Shown here: one piece after another, positions 168-9,222 of the stretch
How positions within the stretch are numbered: position 1 is the first letter of the stretch
Layout of the letters: every line of letters starts with the position of its first letter
Assembly: GCA_038534295.1 (NCBI GenBank)
Contig: JBCAXA010000003.1
Location: 263,926-327,925 of the forward strand
Direction: 5' to 3'
Length of the DNA stretch: 64,000 nt
DNA from: Pseudomonadota bacterium
Lineage (GTDB): Bacteria > Pseudomonadota > Gammaproteobacteria > Steroidobacterales > Woeseiaceae
Translations under genes and position numbers: made by a program
The notes under the pieces: model-generated
What the model saw: the letters and a program-made list of their open reading frames with translations, nothing else
Database searches by the model: none
Told to the model about the DNA's origin: nothing

Positions 168-433
168 GCTGAGAATTCCTGGGTCGCCCCGACGGGGACC
201 GCGTAGGGTAAACCTTGTCATCGATCGTTGCCAGCCGTGCCGGCACTATGCCCGGCGCTTGGCCAGATACGACTACTGAGAGTCTTTGCCGAGGCGCATC
301 ACTTAGAGAATAGAAGTCGCTCGGCGAGGCAATGTCCGTCGATCCGTCGGCTTGCATGACAGGCATGCACGGTCGCATGGTCGCCCGGCACGCGCGATCC
401 TATAATCCCACTGACCCCGGCCCGGAGACACGG

Positions 434-2023
434 ATGTCAATCAACGATCACCTCATCAAGACCGGCGCCGACGGACGTCTCGACGGCACGTCCACGGCTC
501 AAATCGACAAATTGATTCGGCGGCTCAGCAAAGAACAGCGTGTCGTCATTCATCTGCACGGCGGTCTCGTGTCGACCAAAAACGGCATCGCCAGCGCGGC
601 CGAACTCGAGCCCGAGTACGAAGCCGCCGGTGCTTATCCGGTCTACTTCATCTATCGCACGGGGCTGTTGGAGATCGTCCGCAACAACCTCGGCGAAATC
701 GCCCGCGAGAAGATCTTCCAGCGCTTGCTCGTGAAGATCATCAAATTTGTCATGGGCAAGCTAACCGATTTCGGCGGTCGATCGACGTCTGCCGCCTTGG
801 CACTCCCCACCGAACGCGAGGTGCGAATCGAGCTGCAAAAATGTCGACAGAACATCGAACCGTTTGTCGCCGTCGCGCCAGCGCCCGCCGCGGCAGCGAC
901 AGGCCGGGGCGGTGCGGCAGCCGTACGTGGGCTAACGGCAACCGAAAAAGAACAGTTTCTTGACGATCTGTCCACGGATCCCGATCTGCAAACCGAGCTT
1001 CAGGAAATAATCAACGGCGCTGGTGATGTTGTCGGTGAGCACAGTCGCATGGCCGCGCGGGCCGGCGGCAGCGCGGCGTCCCGTGCAACGATGATGTCCG
1101 AGCATGTCGTGCATGAGTTGGTCGGTGACGGCTCCGCAAAAGACGCACGCGGTGTTTACAGCAGCGCAAAGTTCTTCGCTCATGCCATGAAGGTGCTTGG
1201 TCGGGTGATCAGTCGCTTTCGCTCCGGGCGCGACCACGGCGTTTACGCAACGGTAGTCGAAGAGCTAGCCCGCGAGCTCTACCTCGATAATGTCGGCCGC
1301 TTGGTGTGGAACACCATGAAAAAAGAGACGGCGCAGACGTTCGAGTCCGGGTCCGCCGGTGACGTACGTGGTGGCCGCTACTTCGTCGACGCGTTGAGCC
1401 AGATGGTCGCCGCGAGCGAAAACCCACCGGAAATCACCGTTGTTGCACACAGTCTGGGCTCAGTCTTCGCCTGCAACCTAATGGCCGATATTCGCAAAGC
1501 GCAGAAAGACGCTCAGCACCCCTGGCCTAAGGACTACCTCGTCGAAAACTTGATATTCCTCGCGCCGGCCGTCGAGCACAGTGTCTTCGCGAAGACGATC
1601 GGTCGCGACAGCGCAGCATTTCGACATTTTCGGATGTTTTCACTCAACGACACGCTCGAATCGGGTTATTGGGAAGTGCCGGTTGTGTATCCACGCTCGT
1701 TGCTTTATTTGGTGTCAGGTGCTTTCGAGGAAACCGACAAAGGCGACGGCGCATTCGATCGGCCGTTGGTCGGCATGCAGCGCTATCACACTCGAGCCAC
1801 CGTTTACCGTATGGCAGACGTCAAAAAGGTTCGCGACTACCTCAACGTGCGCGGTCTGGCGCGCGCCGTTTGGTCGGAGACGCCGGCTAACGCTCGTGCC
1901 GGGCAACGTTCCGATGCCATCGAGCATGCGACGTTCAACGACGTCAAGTTTCCGCCAGGCGAAAAGAAACGACGTGCGACGGTCGACAGCCTGCGGCACA
2001 TTATTCGTAACGGCATGAATTGA
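434..2023 (+). CDS. Alpha/beta-hydrolase fold protein (lipase/esterase-like, HGG oxyanion type) with a large internal insertion.
   Basis: It has a VVIHLHGG motif (HGG oxyanion hole) and a nucleophile elbow VVAHSLGS (GxSxG-like) about 300 aa downstream. GGAG lies 8 nt upstream of the ATG at 434, which is in frame with the track start at 332. Its stop overlaps the next gene. Confidence 0.6.
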   Translation: MSINDHLIKTGADGRLDGTSTAQIDKLIRRLSKEQRVVIHLHGGLVSTKNGIASAAELEPEYEAAGAYPVYFIYRTGLLEIVRNNLGEIAREKIFQRLLVKIIKFVMGKLTDFGGRSTSAALALPTEREVRIELQKCRQNIEPFVAVAPAPAAAATGRGGAAAVRGLTATEKEQFLDDLSTDPDLQTELQEIINGAGDVVGEHSRMAARAGGSAASRATMMSEHVVHELVGDGSAKDARGVYSSAKFFAHAMKVLGRVISRFRSGRDHGVYATVVEELARELYLDNVGRLVWNTMKKETAQTFESGSAGDVRGGRYFVDALSQMVAASENPPEITVVAHSLGSVFACNLMADIRKAQKDAQHPWPKDYLVENLIFLAPAVEHSVFAKTIGRDSAAFRHFRMFSLNDTLESGYWEVPVVYPRSLLYLVSGAFEETDKGDGAFDRPLVGMQRYHTRATVYRMADVKKVRDYLNVRGLARAVWSETPANARAGQRSDAIEHATFNDVKFPPGEKKRRATVDSLRHIIRNGMN

Positions 2024-2040
2024 GGTTTGGCAACGCTGCA

Positions 2041-3150
2041 ATGACTGCCGCCAGCGACGAGGTACCGAATCCCTACCATTACGCGGTGGTTGTAGGCATC
2101 GACAGCTACCCGTCACAGAAGCCACTCAAAGGTGCCCGCGTCGATGCTCGGCAGTTTGCCAAATGGCTGCGTCAACCTGAAAACGGCGGGCTCAAGCGGG
2201 AAAACGTCGGGCTCGTCGTCGATCCGTCAAAAAAAGACAAGCCACAGACTGACCGCGAATCCGCGGTGCCGACACGGATGCGGATCTACAAAGAGATACG
2301 CAAATTTGTCGAACGCGCTAAGCAAGCCGTCGATGCGGATCCGACCGTGTGGGACAGCACACGTCTGTATGTTTTTTTGGCTGGCCATGGAATCGCGCAC
2401 GGCCGCGAAAACGTCGCGCTGTTAATGGCCAACGTTGGCGACGAGTACCGCAGCGAAAATCTGTCGACCGGCCGAATTATCGATATTCTGAAGCTCCGGC
2501 AGGATTTCGCGGAAGTCGTGATCATTGCCGACTGCTGTCGCGACCGACCGCTGGCGACCGCATTCCCGCCGCTCGACCTCGACCCACGTGTTGGACAGAA
2601 CGGTGAGGTCAAGTGGTCCGTCTTTATGGGTTCGGAATTTGAGCGTCGCGCATTTGAGGCCGTACCGGAGGGTGCTGACCCAAACGATCCCAATCTGTTC
2701 CGCGGTCACTTCACCAAAGCGGTACTCGAAGGTCTGCGCGGTGGCTTCATCGACGGGCCCGTCAATATAGGAACGCTCAAGCAATTCGTTCGCGAGCGCT
2801 TGCGCAAACAGTTAGAAGGCCGTGGCTACGATCAGCGCGCGCGTCTGTTTGGCTACGAAGCCAGTGAAATCGTCCTTAGGCAATCGGCAACCGGTAGTAA
2901 CGACTCGCCTGCGCCGGCCAACGTTGAAATTGTGCTCGAAGTGTTAGCGCCGTTTGTTGGTGACGTTGCCGTGCATGGCGGCGAGAATGTGCAAATTACG
3001 CAGTTCCGCGTAACCGACGATCGTCGCCGCCATCGCGTATTGGCTAATGTCGGTATCAACCGCGTTGTAGCGGTCGGCGAGATCGACCACCGTTTTCAGG
3101 CTGACGGATTCTTCATCGCGCTAGTGGATGACGAGCATGTCCGGATCTAG
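2041..3150 (+). CDS. Caspase-fold peptidase (C14/CHAT-like); the catalytic His-Gly and Cys are present.
   Basis: YAVVVGIDSYPS matches a caspase N-terminal beta-strand, LAGHGIAHG carries the His of the dyad, and IIADCCRD carries the catalytic Cys. An alternative TTG start at 2020 overlaps the upstream stop (TTGA). Confidence 0.65.
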   Translation: MTAASDEVPNPYHYAVVVGIDSYPSQKPLKGARVDARQFAKWLRQPENGGLKRENVGLVVDPSKKDKPQTDRESAVPTRMRIYKEIRKFVERAKQAVDADPTVWDSTRLYVFLAGHGIAHGRENVALLMANVGDEYRSENLSTGRIIDILKLRQDFAEVVIIADCCRDRPLATAFPPLDLDPRVGQNGEVKWSVFMGSEFERRAFEAVPEGADPNDPNLFRGHFTKAVLEGLRGGFIDGPVNIGTLKQFVRERLRKQLEGRGYDQRARLFGYEASEIVLRQSATGSNDSPAPANVEIVLEVLAPFVGDVAVHGGENVQITQFRVTDDRRRHRVLANVGINRVVAVGEIDHRFQADGFFIALVDDEHVRI

Positions 3151-4751: not shown

Positions 4752-5675
4752 GTGAAAGCACAAGGAATTCGTAAGCAAAGTCCGGCCGCTGTTTTCGTCT
4801 GTGCGTTCTTTCTGTCCGGTTGCGTCGCCACCGGCCCGTCGGTTGAATCCGCACCCGTGCAGGCGTTTCGCGACAGCGTTGCAACACTGCAGGCGGCATC
4901 TGAAACAGCGTTGGCTGCCGAGCGTGACCGCGCCTATTTTCGCTTTGCGCGCGAGCGCGGTGAGGTCAATGATTTTGCTGCTCTGCAGCTCGAAAGCGTG
5001 CAGCCTATGTCGCCGTTCGAAATGCAGCAGACCGGGAATCCGCTTTTTAGGAGTATCGATTCCGCACACGAGAGTCTCGGACAGCTGCACGACCTACTGC
5101 TTCGATATTGCGATGCGTTGCTCAGCATTTCCGGGCCAGATGGCGTTGCTACGTTCGACGCCGATGCTGAGGCCGGCGCGCTGCGGGATGCGGCTGAGTC
5201 GTTCGCAGCGTCAGCGGACGTCAGTTTGGATGTACCCGACGGTGTATTTTTCGGGTTTGCCGAAATTGCCCGAAACTACCTTGAAAGCCGGCGACGCGAC
5301 GAATTCGACGCATTAATCAACGCCTCACAACCGACGATTGCACGCGTTGCTGAGCTGGCCCAACAGTTGGTCACCCTGAGTGCGCTTGGCCTGCAAGCAG
5401 AATATGCTGCGGCCTACAGTGCAATGACCGACGATGTCGATTCGCTATCGGCATCTCGTCGTGCGCGCTTGCCCACTGACCTTCTCGAGCTGAACGAAGA
5501 GACGCTGCATCAATTGGCGGTCCTTGGCGACCTCAACGCCGCGTACGGAACTCTGCCGTCGACACACGCACGACTTGCAACGGCAAGCTCGGCCCGCGAC
5601 CTAGGTTTGTCGGAGATCGCCGAGTACTTGCGTTCGATTCGTCGCCGCTACAACGAATTCGAAAGGAGTAACTAA
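4752..5675 (+). CDS. Putative lipoprotein of unknown function (lipobox LSGC).
   Basis: A GTG at 4752 follows an AGGGGGT RBS. The N-terminus KAQGIRKQSPAAVFVCAFFLSGC is a typical n-region, h-region and lipobox. It is in frame with the track ORF from 4698. Confidence 0.5.
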   Translation: MKAQGIRKQSPAAVFVCAFFLSGCVATGPSVESAPVQAFRDSVATLQAASETALAAERDRAYFRFARERGEVNDFAALQLESVQPMSPFEMQQTGNPLFRSIDSAHESLGQLHDLLLRYCDALLSISGPDGVATFDADAEAGALRDAAESFAASADVSLDVPDGVFFGFAEIARNYLESRRRDEFDALINASQPTIARVAELAQQLVTLSALGLQAEYAAAYSAMTDDVDSLSASRRARLPTDLLELNEETLHQLAVLGDLNAAYGTLPSTHARLATASSARDLGLSEIAEYLRSIRRRYNEFERSN

Positions 5676-6022
5676 TGGCCATCAGCGCGTTTGATAAGAA
5701 GCTCGAGATTCTCAGCTTTGTCATTTTCCTGCACGGCAAACTCATTCGTCTGGCCCTAGTGCTCGAGCAGATGGGCGAAGACTCCGCGCGCGTACGCGAG
5801 CGAGAGGCCAAAGCGTTACAAACGATCGATGCTATGCGTGCTGCAATGCTCACGACGTGGAGCGGAAACGCTAAATCGGTCATGCGGGACCTGCGCGCGA
5901 TAAACGCAGATGCGCAGCGGCGGGTGAGAGAGCTCGAAAACACTATCGATCGCGTCGGCAAACTGACATCGGTTCTCGAGAGAATCGACAAAGCAATCGC
6001 ACTGGTTCGCAACTTGCTTTAG
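5675..6022 (+). CDS. Small hypothetical protein (115 aa), predicted helical/coiled-coil. Last gene of the operon.
   Basis: Its ATG overlaps the upstream TAA (TAATG). It is rich in heptad-like E/L/R/A stretches. Confidence 0.4.
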   Translation: MAISAFDKKLEILSFVIFLHGKLIRLALVLEQMGEDSARVREREAKALQTIDAMRAAMLTTWSGNAKSVMRDLRAINADAQRRVRELENTIDRVGKLTSVLERIDKAIALVRNLL

Positions 6023-6075
6023 TTGTTCGCGATGTCGCTATGCGGCAAGTAAATTAAAAAAGTTTTTGAGCACGG

Positions 6076-6103
6076 TTGACATGAAACATTCGGTGCGTAT
6101 AGT
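6076..6103 (+). promoter_or_regulatory. Near-consensus sigma70 promoter (-35 TTGACA, 16-nt spacer, -10 TATAGT) facing the tRNA cluster.
   Basis: TTGACA is at 6076-6081 and TATAGT at 6098-6103. A GC-rich structured leader follows (CGGGGCAGG...CCTGCCCCG at about 6368-6430). Confidence 0.45.
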
Positions 6104-6474
6104 TCCCGACCCTATGAGTAAACAGCTCGACAACTTGTTTACGTATCGACCCGGTGGAGAACCGCGCTTGCCCATACGCGCGATTCAACGTCGACGGATT
6201 CGTATGTCCTCGCGAAACGGTAGCGCGATGACGTAGCCTTGCAGCTGACATTGCTGGAAGGCCAAAAGTTTTGTGCCTTCCAGAGCAAATAGGCCCTGGT
6301 TGGTTTTTCCGATCAGGGCTTTTTTGTTGCCCCGATCATTGTTCTTTAACAATGCGGATTGCATGAACAGCGGGGCAGGGTCACGTCTAGTGGCGTCTCA
6401 CGCAGGCGTACACTCGCGTCCTGCCCCGCGAAGCTGGGGCCCTCTTCACGAGAAGTGTCCCCCCACTCAACAAA

Positions 6475-6550
6475 AATCCGGTGGACGAAGGGTTACGTCG
6501 CCAGGCTCTCAACCTGGAAGTTGCGGGTTCAAATCCCGTCCGGATTTCCA
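6475..6550 (+). tRNA. tRNA-Glu (anticodon CUC), CCA encoded.
   Basis: Acceptor AATCCGG/CCGGATT, D-stem GACG/CGTC, anticodon stem CCAGG/CCTGG with loop CTCTCAA, T-arm GCGGG-TTCAAAT-CCCGT, discriminator T and CCA. Confidence 0.6.
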
Positions 6551-6555
6551 ACAAT

Positions 6556-6631
6556 AGACCAGTAGCTCAGTCGGTAGAGCGCACGTCTGATATGCGTGAG
6601 GTCGAGTGTTCAATTCACTCCTGGTCGACCA
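6556..6631 (+). tRNA. tRNA-Ile (anticodon GAU) with an A1.G72 mismatch.
   Basis: D-arm TAGCTCAGTCGGTAGAGC, anticodon stem CACGT/GCGTG with loop CTGATAT, T-arm GAGTG-TTCAATT-CACTC, then CTGGTCG-A-CCA. The 5' acceptor AGACCAG leaves A1 opposite G72. Confidence 0.6.
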
Positions 6632-6685
6632 ATCCGTGCAGCTAAGCCACTTGCAACAGGTGCGCTTACCTGCACGTCAAATTTG

Positions 6686-6760
6686 AGATCGATAGCTCAA
6701 TGGCAGAGCACCCGGTTCTTACCCGGGAGGTTACGAGGTCGAGACTCGTTCGATCTACCA
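6686..6760 (+). tRNA. tRNA-Lys (anticodon CUU), CCA encoded.
   Basis: Perfect 7-bp acceptor AGATCGA/TCGATCT, D-arm TAGCTCAATGGCAGAGC, anticodon stem CCCGG/CCGGG with loop TTCTTAC, T-arm ACGAG-GTCGAGA-CTCGT. Confidence 0.8.
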
Positions 6761-7140
6761 CCTGTGGTTAGATCGTGCCGAAGACCGGCGCCATCTAGCG
6801 GAGCCGCACTTCGGCGTTTTGATTTTTGTCACTGCGCGAGGCGGCTCCGATCTACCACCTTCAAATAGATCGTGCCGCAGATCGGCGCCATCTAGCGGAG
6901 CCGCACTTCGGCGTCGTGGTTTTTGCCACTGCGCGAAGCGGCTCCAATCTACCACCTGTGGTTAGATCGTGCTGTACACCGGCGCCGTCTAGCGGAGCCG
7001 CACTTCGGCGTTTTGATTTTTGTCACTTCGCGAGGCGGCTCCGATCTACCACCTTCAAATAGATCGTGCCGTAGATCGGCGCCATCTAACGGAGCCGCTT
7101 TTCAGCGCAGCTATTATTGCCGCGCAAAGCGGCTGCCCAC
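6751..7140 (+). repeat. Tandem direct repeat of four units with exact 97-bp period (starts 6751, 6848, 6945, 7042). Each unit begins with a copy of the tRNA-Lys 3' end (CGATCTACCACC) and contains a GGAGCCGC...GCGGCTCC hairpin. Units alternate two spacer variants (tgtggtt / ttcaaat).
   Basis: Read directly from the sequence. The fourth unit degenerates after about 55 nt. Track ORFs 6596-7283 on the + strand are repeat artefacts with reiterated peptides. Confidence 0.8.
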
Positions 7141-7239
7141 CACGTTCGCGCATGACTTCAGCGGTTCGGGTTCTGAGTCCCGACTGGCGCGCCGACGCTA
7201 ACCATTGCAACGCGTGTACCGAAGTTTGCCGACCACCCA

Positions 7240-7315
7240 GCGAAACTAGCTCAGCGGTCAGAGCGTACGACCACAAGTCGTAAGGTCGCAGGTTCGAATC
7301 CTGTATTTCGCTCCA
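7240..7315 (+). tRNA. tRNA of uncertain identity. The anticodon loop CCACAAG has C33, and position 34-36 reads ACA.
   Basis: Acceptor GCGAAAC/ATTTCGC with a C7.A66 mismatch, D-arm TAGCTCAGCGGTCAGAGC, anticodon stem TACGA/TCGTA, T-arm GCAGG-TTCGAAT-CCTGT, discriminator T and CCA. Confidence 0.45.
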
Positions 7316-7389
7316 TGGGAATTAGCTCAGTTGGTAAGAGCATACGGCTGTTAACCGTAAAGTCGCAGGTTCGACTCCTGCATTTCCGC
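7316..7389 (+). tRNA. tRNA-Asn (anticodon GUU), no encoded CCA.
   Basis: Acceptor TGGGAAT/ATTTCCG (U1.G72 and G4.U69 wobbles), D-arm TAGCTCAGTTGGTAAGAGC, anticodon stem TACGG/CCGTA with loop CTGTTAA, T-arm GCAGG-TTCGACT-CCTGC. Confidence 0.7.
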
Positions 7390-7900
7390 TAAATCTTCCT
7401 CACTGGAGGATTGCCAAGGGACCAGGCGGTTCGACTCCGCCACCGGCAGGAAACTGCCACAACCGCGGCCGCTTCCGGCGTGCTCGTTGCGGCGAAGCTT
7501 GCTTCGCCAAGGCGAATACGCGGCAGCGTGCTGGCCGGCTCGCAGTTGCTTTGTCGAGTCCGACTTCATGCCCGGTGTTGCCCCAGGTTAATCGCGAAGG
7601 ATTGCGATTAGCCCCGGGTATCACCGCGTATAAGGTCCGCTCGCCAATTGCTGTGCGCCCGCCGACACACTGTGGAAGCGGTCGCATCAATTTCACAAAC
7701 GCACGCATCGGGCGTGCGTTCAATTTCTCAACGACGACAAAGGAGGTGATCCAATGAGCCACGGCATGGCCCGCGTGGTCGATGTCGAGCGTCAGATTCG
7801 TGCGCGCAAGGCGAGGATGCTTCCGTTGTCCGAGCCAGCCACGACGCTGCGCCCGACCGGGCCAGAACGAAACACTAACAACACAAAAGGAGCACGTAAC

Positions 7901-9040
7901 ATGATTTACACAAAGTTTATCGTGCGCAAGCACGAACGTGCACTCCTGTTCCGTGACGGTGACTTCGCGGGGTTCCTGGAGCCTGGCGTCCACCGTTTCG
8001 TAACGGTACTGCACAAGTACACGATCGAACGCTTCGATCTTACGGTACCAATCTTTGGCCACCGTCTGCAGGACTTCCTGATTGAGAAGTACCCGGAGGC
8101 GGTTGCGCGCTACTTCGACGTCGTAGCGACGGACAAGAACGAGATTGCGTTCGTCTACCACGACGAGCGCGTGACGCTCGTATTGGCACCGGCAACGCGC
8201 AAGCTTTTCACGAAGGGTGTGAAGACGATTCGCGTTGAGCGCTTCGAGATCATCGACACGCTCGATGTCGATCCTCGTCTGGCTAAGCGTCTCGTTGCCG
8301 GCAACGATCCGATGCTAAAGGCGATCGCGGATAAGGCGATCTACTCGCGCATCGTACCGGCCGGCCACGTTGGTTTGCTGACCGTTGACGGTGAGCTGGC
8401 CCGCACGCTTAAGCCTGGTTTCCACGCGTTCTTCGCGGTCGAGCGCGACGTTTCGGTCGAACTCTACGATACTCGTCTGCGTACCCTCGAGGTGTCGGGT
8501 CAGGAGATCCTGACCAAGGACAAGGTGTCACTGCGCATCAACCTGACGGCAACGTACCAGCTCAAGGACGTCGAGAAGGCTGTCCGTGAGACCAAGGATC
8601 CGCTGGATTATCTGTACAAGGAAGTGCAGTTCGCTCTGCGCGGCGCCGTTGGTACGCGCACGCTCGATGCTTTGCTCGAGGACAAGGCGGTCATCGATCG
8701 TACTGTTGCCGAGCATCTGAAGGCCCCGTTCGACGAGATCGGTATTGCCGTGAAGTCGGTCGGCGTCAAGGACATCATCCTGCCCGGTGATATGAAGGAG
8801 CTGCTGGGCAAGGTGGTGGAGGCTGAGAAGGCCGCACAGGCTAACGTGATCCGCCGTCGCGAAGAGACCAACGCAACGCGTTCACTGCTAAACACGGCCA
8901 AGGTCATGGAGACCAACGCTGTGGCGCTGCGTCTCAAGGAGCTAGAGACACTCGAGAAGATTACCGACAAGGTCGGCAACATCTCGGTCTACGGTGGTCT
9001 CGACGCCGTGCTGAACGACCTGGTTCGCATGAAGCAGTAG
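7901..9040 (+). CDS. SPFH/band-7 domain protein (slipin/HflK-C-like).
   Basis: AAAGGAG RBS 7 nt before the ATG at 7901. KHERALLFRDGDFAGFLEPGVH matches the SPFH N-terminal region. A C-terminal coiled-coil is present (EAEKAAQANVIRRREETNATR). The track start at 7754 probably over-extends. Confidence 0.65.
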   Translation: MIYTKFIVRKHERALLFRDGDFAGFLEPGVHRFVTVLHKYTIERFDLTVPIFGHRLQDFLIEKYPEAVARYFDVVATDKNEIAFVYHDERVTLVLAPATRKLFTKGVKTIRVERFEIIDTLDVDPRLAKRLVAGNDPMLKAIADKAIYSRIVPAGHVGLLTVDGELARTLKPGFHAFFAVERDVSVELYDTRLRTLEVSGQEILTKDKVSLRINLTATYQLKDVEKAVRETKDPLDYLYKEVQFALRGAVGTRTLDALLEDKAVIDRTVAEHLKAPFDEIGIAVKSVGVKDIILPGDMKELLGKVVEAEKAAQANVIRRREETNATRSLLNTAKVMETNAVALRLKELETLEKITDKVGNISVYGGLDAVLNDLVRMKQ

Positions 9041-9052
9041 TTCGGCACATTC

Positions 9053-9076
9053 GGGAGGGGGCGTTCGCCCCCTCCC
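9053..9076. terminator. Perfect GC hairpin (GGGAGGGGGCG-TT-CGCCCCCTCCC) between convergent genes; likely bidirectional terminator.
   Basis: An 11-bp perfect stem with a 2-nt loop, located between the + gene ending at 9040 and the - gene ending at 9223. Confidence 0.5.
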
Positions 9077-9222
9077 ATCTACGGCGATAGCTCAAAAGCT
9101 GGGAGACTAACAGGTGATGTCTGGACTCGTGCGTTTGAAGCAAACTTCACGGTGACATTCTTCCAATCTGATGCAAATTACGCATTTCGTGTGCATCTTT
9201 TTGCAGGGCTTCCTCCAGCTCG

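Follow-up and report, generated by a model that had tools for sequence, protein, structure and literature searches.

A 97-nt tandem repeat that opens with the 3' end of tRNA-Lys in a slipin-containing tRNA array of a Woeseiaceae bacterium

We describe a 97-nt head-to-tail array of 3.6 to 4 units in the genome of a marine-sediment Woeseiaceae bacterium. It lies at 6751-7145, on the forward strand, of a 64,000-nt stretch of DNA (contig JBCAXA010000003.1, positions 263,926 to 327,925, assembly GCA_038534295.1; hereafter the window), between a tRNA-Lys gene and a 'Cys' tRNA-like gene and inside an accessory tRNA gene cluster. The array is probably a lineage-specific tandem amplification of a hairpin-forming inter-tRNA spacer, within what appears to be a decaying, horizontally mobile long tRNA array (L-array). 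Its strict period, the homology of its units over their full length, the alternation of two unit types, the 12-nt repeated portion of the tRNA and a gene order shared with the nearest relative (locus L003) together argue for amplification.

Anatomy and folding of the repeat

Tandem Repeats Finder (TRF) reported the repeat at 6751-7098 with a period of 97, 3.6 copies, 84% matches, 0% indels and a score of 521. The array starts inside tRNA-Lys, as the original prediction had noted, 10 nt ahead of the end of the gene, and the 12-mer CGATCTACCACC found there recurs with a period of 97 at 6848, 6945 (as a CAATCT variant) and 7042, giving four matches where 0.12 are expected in shuffles. The earlier description of the array as exact applies to the period, which is kept without indels, and not to the sequence of the units. 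Unit 4 aside, the units are 82-95% identical (80-92 of 97 positions); units 1 and 3, both of the A type, agree at 92 of 97 positions, and A-type units agree with B-type units at 80-84 of 97. Unit 4 matches the others at 59-67 of 97 positions. The linkers alternate in the order A-B-A-B (TGTGGTT in A, TTCAAAT in B), and copies 194 nt apart are more alike than neighbours (91% versus 85%), which fits the duplication of an A-B dimer that had been proposed from the sequence.

Every unit opens with AGATCG, the 5' start of tRNA-Lys, and the linker between the ACCACC of one unit and the AGATCG of the next measures 7 nt (9 nt counted from the CCA). All units had been thought to run from AGATCG to CGATCT-ACCACC, an expectation borne out by two of the four; unit 2 terminates in CAATCT, and unit 4 has no tRNA-Lys-derived end, its terminus being GCGGCTGCCCACCACG. 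Likewise, the internal 8-bp hairpin GGAGCCGC/GCGGCTCC attributed to each unit is found in units 1-3. The 3' part of unit 4 aligns with the hairpin that precedes element X, a structured element to the right of the array (Table 1), and relatives that lack the array have this hairpin too; the right edge of the array therefore lies inside an ancestral feature. The open reading frames (ORFs) called over the array overlap tRNA genes, 97 is not divisible by three, and the array of the closest relative is a full unit shorter, all of which agrees with their earlier dismissal as artefacts.

On the tRNA strand, the best predicted fold of each unit has two hairpins that form independently, with (G)AUCUACCACC as an unpaired tail behind them. 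In hairpin 1, AGAU.GUGCCG pairs across a 5-nt loop with CGGCGC.AUCU; hairpin 2 is formed by GGAGCCGC ... GCGGCUCC and has an extended apex. The energies of these folds lie between -39 and -45 kcal/mol and their z-scores between -3.9 and -4.5, and the folds of the reverse strand are weaker (z -2.1 and -2.7). We counted pairs over six distinct units, taken from the window and from L003. Hairpin 1 is paired in all six, its two changes (both in unit 3 of the window) each leading to G.U; hairpin 2 is 92% paired, has two pairs changed on both sides and shows an A-U to G-C exchange at its apex. As modelled, the hairpins on the tRNA strand appear real.

Stable folding of the units had been anticipated in another form, that of a tRNA-like minihelix closed by the acceptor sequence. 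Units 1 and 3 do allow a helix followed by ACCA to be drawn, but the models disfavour it and do not support the minihelix: forcing AGAUCG to pair with CGAUCU gives a fold 5.5-7 kcal/mol worse than the minimum-energy fold with two hairpins. This acceptor-like helix is 75% paired over the six units, and each departure breaks a pair with no compensation elsewhere; unit 2 has a mismatch in it, and the terminal units lack it altogether. In agreement with this, ARAGORN called no gene in 6761-7239, and the Rfam tRNA model (RF00005, gathering score 29 bits) had no match on any unit, including at E values up to 10. Terminator-like matches within units 1 and 3 were fewer than shuffles predict, and the fold of the whole array consisted of inter-unit pairings and was uninformative.

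Table 1. Features of the tRNA array and its repeat in the window (all on the forward strand)
Feature	Position	Description
Promoter, sigma-70-like	6076..6103	TTGACA-16-TATAGT; 11/12 consensus positions; same hexamers in L004
Candidate leader ORF	6116-6238	~40 aa, MSKQLDNLF...SAMT
Terminator-like stem, after a hairpin that follows the ORF	6291-6331	13-bp stem with T-run, ahead of the tRNA cluster
tRNA-Glu(CUC)	6475-6550	Encoded CCA; ARAGORN; Rfam tRNA model, 61.6 bits
tRNA-Ile(GAU)	6556-6631	Encoded CCA; ARAGORN; Rfam tRNA model, 63.9 bits
tRNA-Lys(CUU)	6686..6760	ARAGORN; Rfam tRNA model
Seed copy of the repeat	6751-6762	CGATCTACCACC; final 10 nt of tRNA-Lys and the next 2 bases
Unit 1 (A type)	6763..6859	Linker TGTGGTT; hairpin 1 6770-6796; hairpin 2 6799-6849; tRNA-Lys 3'-end copy 6848-6859
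Unit 2 (B type)	6860..6956	Linker TTCAAAT; hairpin 1 6867-6893; hairpin 2 6896-6946; end copy CAATCTACCACC 6945-6956
Unit 3 (A type)	6957..7053	Hairpin 1 6964-6990; hairpin 2 6993-7043; end copy 7042-7053
Unit 4 (B-type 5' half, diverged 3' half)	7054..7145	Hairpin 1 7061-7087; hairpin 2 7091-7137; end GCGGCTGCCCACCACG
Element X	7137..7238	Structured leader bounding the array on the right; in >15 related array-less loci
Two tandem tRNA-like genes	7240..7389	'Cys-ACA' (7240-7315) and Asn-GUU (7316-7389); orthologues keep the body and carry other anticodons
Slipin (SPFH/Band 7) gene	7754..9040	Embedded in the tRNA array

Copy number in relatives and the origin of the array

Orthologous loci were found with the slipin gene of the window as an anchor, and the homologues of this gene assign the window to the Woeseiaceae or to related uncultured Gammaproteobacteria. 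The nearest relative, L003 (GCA_039818465.1), has a slipin that is 97% identical, flanks that are 97.6% and 96.4% identical and the gene order of the window on both sides. Its array holds three units in the order B-A-B where the window has four, so the comparison of copy number suggested with the original prediction did bring a difference to light. The first unit of L003 is identical to unit 2 of the window at 97 of 97 positions, its terminal unit is B-like at the place where unit 4 has diverged, and its tRNA-Lys carries a T-stem mismatch. A public short-read contig (L001) begins inside the array. Among the loci fetched, the array is known from two genomes only: the repeat was not found in the other related loci by TRF on the slipin loci, and a covariance model of the unit, run over 237 kb of related loci from 26 sources, returned no further convincing copies. 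The model's match at 406-505 of L021 (12.8 bits, E 0.69) corresponds to another kind of spacer hairpin. At the same site, array-less relatives have a tRNA-Val gene, or a short hairpin or direct junction to element X. Presence in the window and L003, together with absence from the other relatives, indicates that the array arose within one shallow lineage.

We propose that the array grew from a module of about 85 nt, with two hairpins, that starts directly after the CCA of tRNA-Lys(CUU). A copy of the last 12 nt of the tRNA would first have been joined to the 3' side of this module, which left a short direct repeat (A-B-A). Two diverged unit types would then have arisen as the repeats underwent unequal recombination or replication slippage with each other, and the same process would have duplicated the dimer to give ABAB, with a copy number that may still be changing, as the four units of the window and the three of its nearest relative would indicate. 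We infer, further, that the promoter at 6076 drives transcription of the array together with the tRNAs, possibly subject to leader-peptide attenuation, and that tRNA processing would free hairpin-rich fragments of about 90-97 nt, much as rtT RNA is freed from the tyrT transcript of Escherichia coli. A function of the units beyond that of a spacer is unproven.

Several points weigh against amplification of a spacer as we picture it. Twelve nucleotides are short for homologous recombination, and the first step is left without an explanation. A and B units differ at 13-17 of 97 positions with their hairpins intact, from which it follows that the array is not very young and that some constraint on RNA structure is possible. 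The presence of AGATCG, the start of tRNA-Lys, at the beginning of each unit obliges a spacer model to invoke a palindrome, CGATCT...AGATCG. Both assemblies may be based on short reads, in which case the absolute copy numbers could be wrong, though the unit sequences differ between the window and L003 and the two are thus not one collapsed array. With six sequences, the covariation controls for the hairpins are not significant, 34-43 of 500 shuffles reaching the observed values, and this speaks against a selected RNA.

Outside this shallow lineage, one homologue of the unit was identified. It is a single copy in L004, whose slipin is 86% identical to that of the window, and it stands after tRNA-Leu(CAG), downstream of the slipin gene. 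An ungapped local alignment over 64 nt scores 48, against 18 +/- 3.3 for shuffles, and the two sequences share TGTGGTT, AGCGGAGCCGCACTTC, TCACTGC and GAGCGGCTC in the same order. The homologue terminates in a second, ~45-nt copy of the tRNA-Leu 3' end, for a period of 101. A lower-coverage contig from the same sample and locus, L005, differs from L004 by one single-nucleotide polymorphism and one indel over 5.6 kb before departing from it at 5662, inside the second tRNA-Leu copy; beyond this point, L005 has a large serine recombinase, a CI-like repressor and an HsdM gene. From the two contigs, the orphan tRNA 3' end beside the unit has thus served as an insertion site, in what is an insertion polymorphism within one sample. 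The element was inserted after GGGCGGC in this orphan end (L004 5567-5672 compared with L005 5567 onwards), and roughly the last 25 codons of the L005 recombinase ORF come from host-side unit sequence.

This pair of loci bears on the original proposal for the window, namely that the repeats are scars left by serial site-specific integration and excision at a bacterial attachment site (attB) in tRNA-Lys. Integration at tRNA genes typically comes with direct repeats of the tRNA 3' end. In L004, moreover, a copy of the tRNA-Leu 3' end stands on each side of the homologous unit, and the serine recombinase element of L005 starts exactly inside the second of these copies. L004/L005 are, however, the only support for the integration idea, and they concern another tRNA in another genome; an occupied site and its empty counterpart were seen there alone. 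In the window, the 97-bp units are strictly periodic and homologous over their full length, which is the signature of amplification rather than of independent insertions, and the tRNA portion repeated is 12 nt only. No element DNA separates the repeats, and a domain scan of eight large ORFs located up to about 6 kb to the left or right of the array revealed no recombinase. The genes on both flanks keep the order seen in L003, and none of the relatives compared has a mobile element after tRNA-Lys. To our knowledge, serine recombinases do not duplicate their targets, which also counts against a series of such events. We therefore regard integration scars as a very improbable origin for the array. 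Even so, such an array could pass for integration scars, just as it breaks short-read assemblies and yields spurious ORFs.

A rather improbable reading, in our judgement, is that the units are degenerate pseudogenes, tandem copies either of tRNA-Lys or of the tRNA-Leu-like gene of L004, in which the acceptor halves and CCA were kept and the interior was replaced or scrambled. It would account for units that open with the 5' hexamer of tRNA-Lys, close with its 3' strand and ACCA, and are separated by a linker of just 7 nt; tandem duplication of tRNA genes is also common in the related arrays. The end of the L004 homologue still preserves a full T-arm, the 3' strand of the acceptor and the CCA, and an acceptor stem could form in it between AGCCGC and GCGGCT. 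The 73-nt interior of the unit, however, is unlike any tRNA of the loci, blastn-short having returned only chance 11-12-mers. D, anticodon and T arms are all missing from the units, the tRNA model is silent on them, and the pairing of the acceptor strands is not conserved. Two resemblances were rejected as chance: a 12-mer that unit 1 has in common with the tRNA-Phe anticodon arm of L006-L008, which involves one unit only and a different pairing register, and a similarity of the units to 6384-6409 (26 nt at 69-73%), which is not kept in L004.

The units might instead be functional small RNAs with ACCA ends, cut from a stress-type tRNA operon and maintained by selection, an account that we consider unlikely but that deserves some weight. 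Such RNAs could pose as tRNAs, whether as decoys or as substrates, towards RNase P, the CCA-adding enzyme or tRNA-targeting nucleases, or they could be structural or processing elements. Consistent with a function, the units fold stably and do so specifically on the tRNA strand, changes in the stems mostly keep pairing (including G.U pairs possible on the plus strand only, and one compensated pair), and the A and B types persist through about 15% divergence. The E. coli counterpart yields a discrete RNA, rtT, and many non-coding elements, tRNA-like or structured, surround the units. Mimicry of a tRNA, on the other hand, would depend on the disfavoured and poorly conserved acceptor-like helix, and the family comprises one shallow lineage and one distant homologue. 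Searches for related sequences point in the same direction. When Rfam was run over 5500-8500 with cmscan at E up to 10, rtT gave no match; on the units themselves, the only family to appear was Pseudomon-Rho, at the noise level (E 1.9-3.3), and sub-threshold matches to YrlA and mascRNA in the region fell only on true tRNAs. Scans of JGI metagenomes with two unit patterns and of IMG/VR with a pattern of hairpin 2 plus tRNA end gave 0 matches each, and when 6400-7450 was compared by BLAST with phage and plasmid collections, only generic tRNA matches came back. The 16-mer AGCGGAGCCGCACTTC had 18 viral matches, all of them chance, with no similarity outside the 16-mer.

More speculatively, and with little expectation that it will prove correct, one may imagine that the units are kept for the work they do: as CCA-ended RNAs with two hairpins, freed from a stress-inducible tRNA operon, they might absorb or guide enzymes that process or cleave tRNAs, or, as sacrificial tRNA 3' ends, they might divert the site-specific recombinases of mobile elements from the true tRNA gene. 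The latter idea arises because the serine recombinase element of L005 landed in the orphan copy and not in tRNA-Leu itself.

The surrounding tRNA array

The array lies among five tRNA or tRNA-like genes of one strand at 6475-7389 (54-65 bits with the Rfam tRNA model). Around the slipin gene, 22 loci have between 4 and 25 tRNAs, in sets that differ even between close relatives; in L014, up to 25 tRNAs are packed densely on the same strand within 7 kb. These many closely spaced, same-strand and variable tRNA genes are what defines an L-array. In several loci the array is followed by an HNH endonuclease gene, confirmed in L014 (Pfam HNH_5, E 4.6e-16), and the same ORF start was read in L015, L016 and L021. 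Slipin is embedded in long tRNA arrays across the Woeseiaceae (the window and L003-L028), and distant slipin homologues, in metagenome-assembled genomes labelled Rhodospirillales and Accumulibacter, have a tRNA-like gene just upstream. The wider value of the repeat array is that it points to this Woeseiaceae family of slipin-containing long tRNA arrays.

In the window, this tRNA array is cut down to its five genes and the remnant of a tRNA-Arg. After the stop codon of slipin, a GC-rich hairpin is followed by tacggcgatagctcaa (9053-9095), which is the truncated 5' remnant (~9071-9086) of a tRNA-Arg; in L004, L006 and L008, the gene for this tRNA stands behind slipin. The half of the array downstream of slipin has been lost in the lineage of the window, this remnant aside. 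Elsewhere in the family, tRNA-Leu paralogues (CAA, CAG, TAA, TAG) repeat with a period of 79 (L014 5342-5652 and L021 3347-3685, by TRF), which shows tandem accretion at work on entire tRNA genes within this family of islands; the two tRNA-like genes at 7240-7389 are a further tandem pair. Long hairpins directly 3' of CCA occur in many of the inter-tRNA spacers, including 6632-6685 of the window and gaps in L010, L014 and L021, and one recurring spacer type reads ACCAATC(A/C)CGCC...GGACCGCG(T/G)GATTGCC(T/G)TTAGCGG. Such CCA-adjacent hairpins may form a family of spacer or processing modules. Farther upstream, 332-3150 of the window encode a DUF900 alpha/beta hydrolase, a caspase-domain (Peptidase_C14) protein and then three ORFs with no Pfam match.

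The promoter listed in Table 1 is likely, judging from its consensus, to be the start of the operon that contains the array. The ORF that follows it has a counterpart in L004 with like start and end motifs (MKTQPNNLF...GGMT), and the stretch from 6116 to 6331 is a possible ribosome-dependent, leader-peptide attenuator ahead of the tRNAs. Expression of L-arrays is stress-induced, and an attenuator of this kind would fit such expression.

Element X, which is about 100-130 nt long, lies between the last ordinary tRNA and a variable-anticodon tRNA-like gene (e.g. L012 2402-2559). It has three helices, several of whose pairs show compensatory changes, and an invariant stretch, GCCGACGCTAACCAT-GCAACGCGTGTACCGA. 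We regard it as a candidate new RNA motif because no Rfam family matched it. The tRNA-like gene that follows, about 370 nt upstream of slipin, keeps its body in 19 loci (e.g. L004 3487-3634 and L006 3343-3490): the acceptor, D arm, anticodon stem (ATACG/CGTA) and T arm are maintained, and the anticodons include GTT, CAC, GCT, AGT, TGT, TAG, ACT, CAA, TGA, AAT and others. This looks like rapid switching of anticodons on a single scaffold, as far as sequence comparison can tell. U33 is missing from the copy at 7240-7315 and from its orthologues, whose anticodon loops are non-canonical.

Comparison with known systems

The sites of genomic islands and prophages resemble the array in their repeated tRNA 3' end, and the unit of L004/L005 adjoins a real insertion point. 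In the window, by contrast, no element DNA stands between the repeats, the spacing is 97 bp and not kilobases, and the whole unit is repeated rather than a core. Viral tRNA-like structures, mascRNA and YrlA come to mind for units 1 and 3, with their drawable helix and ACCA, but in the window this helix is neither the favoured fold nor conserved.

L-arrays are horizontally spread tRNA arrays known from Anabaena and others (PMC8421152). The window and its related loci share with them dense tRNA arrays on one strand, an adjoining HNH gene (in related loci) and a content that varies between close relatives, whereas the array of the window itself is the reduced one described above. In an Anabaena trcR mutant, the slipin alr0740, the HNH gene all8564, RtcB and the trn array are de-repressed together (PMC10272220). 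Slipin is thus co-induced with the trn array in Anabaena and sits inside the array in the window, and the family of loci joins physically what Anabaena joins by co-regulation, namely a tRNA array, an HNH endonuclease and a slipin. The portions of these L-array papers available to us (PMC8421152, PMC10272220) describe no tandem repeat other than of tRNA genes. Periodic tRNA arrays (A-arrays) are ascribed to slippage or recombination with satellite-like growth (PMC8421152). Their periodic head-to-tail pattern and proposed mechanism of growth are those of our array, with the period-79 tRNA-Leu genes as a parallel in the related loci, but the unit in the window is a spacer with a 12-nt tRNA end and not a tRNA gene.

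The closest analogue is the tyrT/tyrV locus of E. coli, where, as in the window, a head-to-tail array stands directly behind a tRNA gene in a tRNA operon. The repeats of the tyrT operon have been known since the 1980s. Our own analysis of tyrT-tyrV in E. coli K-12 (NC_000913.3) gave a period of 178, 3.1 copies and 95% matches; in the coordinates of the stretch analysed, the array (1105-1663) overlaps the last 19 nt of tyrV (1645-1729), and its first unit carries the annotations rttR and tpr. One tyrT repeat unit is stated to encode rtT RNA (PMC3318445, citing Bosl and Kersten 1991). In both systems, it is the 3' end of the tRNA itself, with its CCA, that opens the period (19 nt in E. coli and 12 nt in the window), and 3-4 copies lie on the strand of the tRNA. 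The two arrays nonetheless show no relationship in sequence or in Rfam, their periods are 178 and 97, and their units are 95% alike in E. coli and 82-95% alike, in two alternating types, in the window, where no ORF is conserved in the units. The repeats of the window are hosted by an accessory array, in contrast to the housekeeping tRNA-Tyr operon of E. coli, and an RNA product has been demonstrated in E. coli, whereas our array is known from its sequence. The array of the window therefore has a tyrT-like anatomy and is not a member of the rtT family. As a second, independent tandem repeat of the E. coli tyrT kind that is seeded by the end of a tRNA, it suggests that the evolution of tRNA operons gives rise to such arrays repeatedly, as a by-product.

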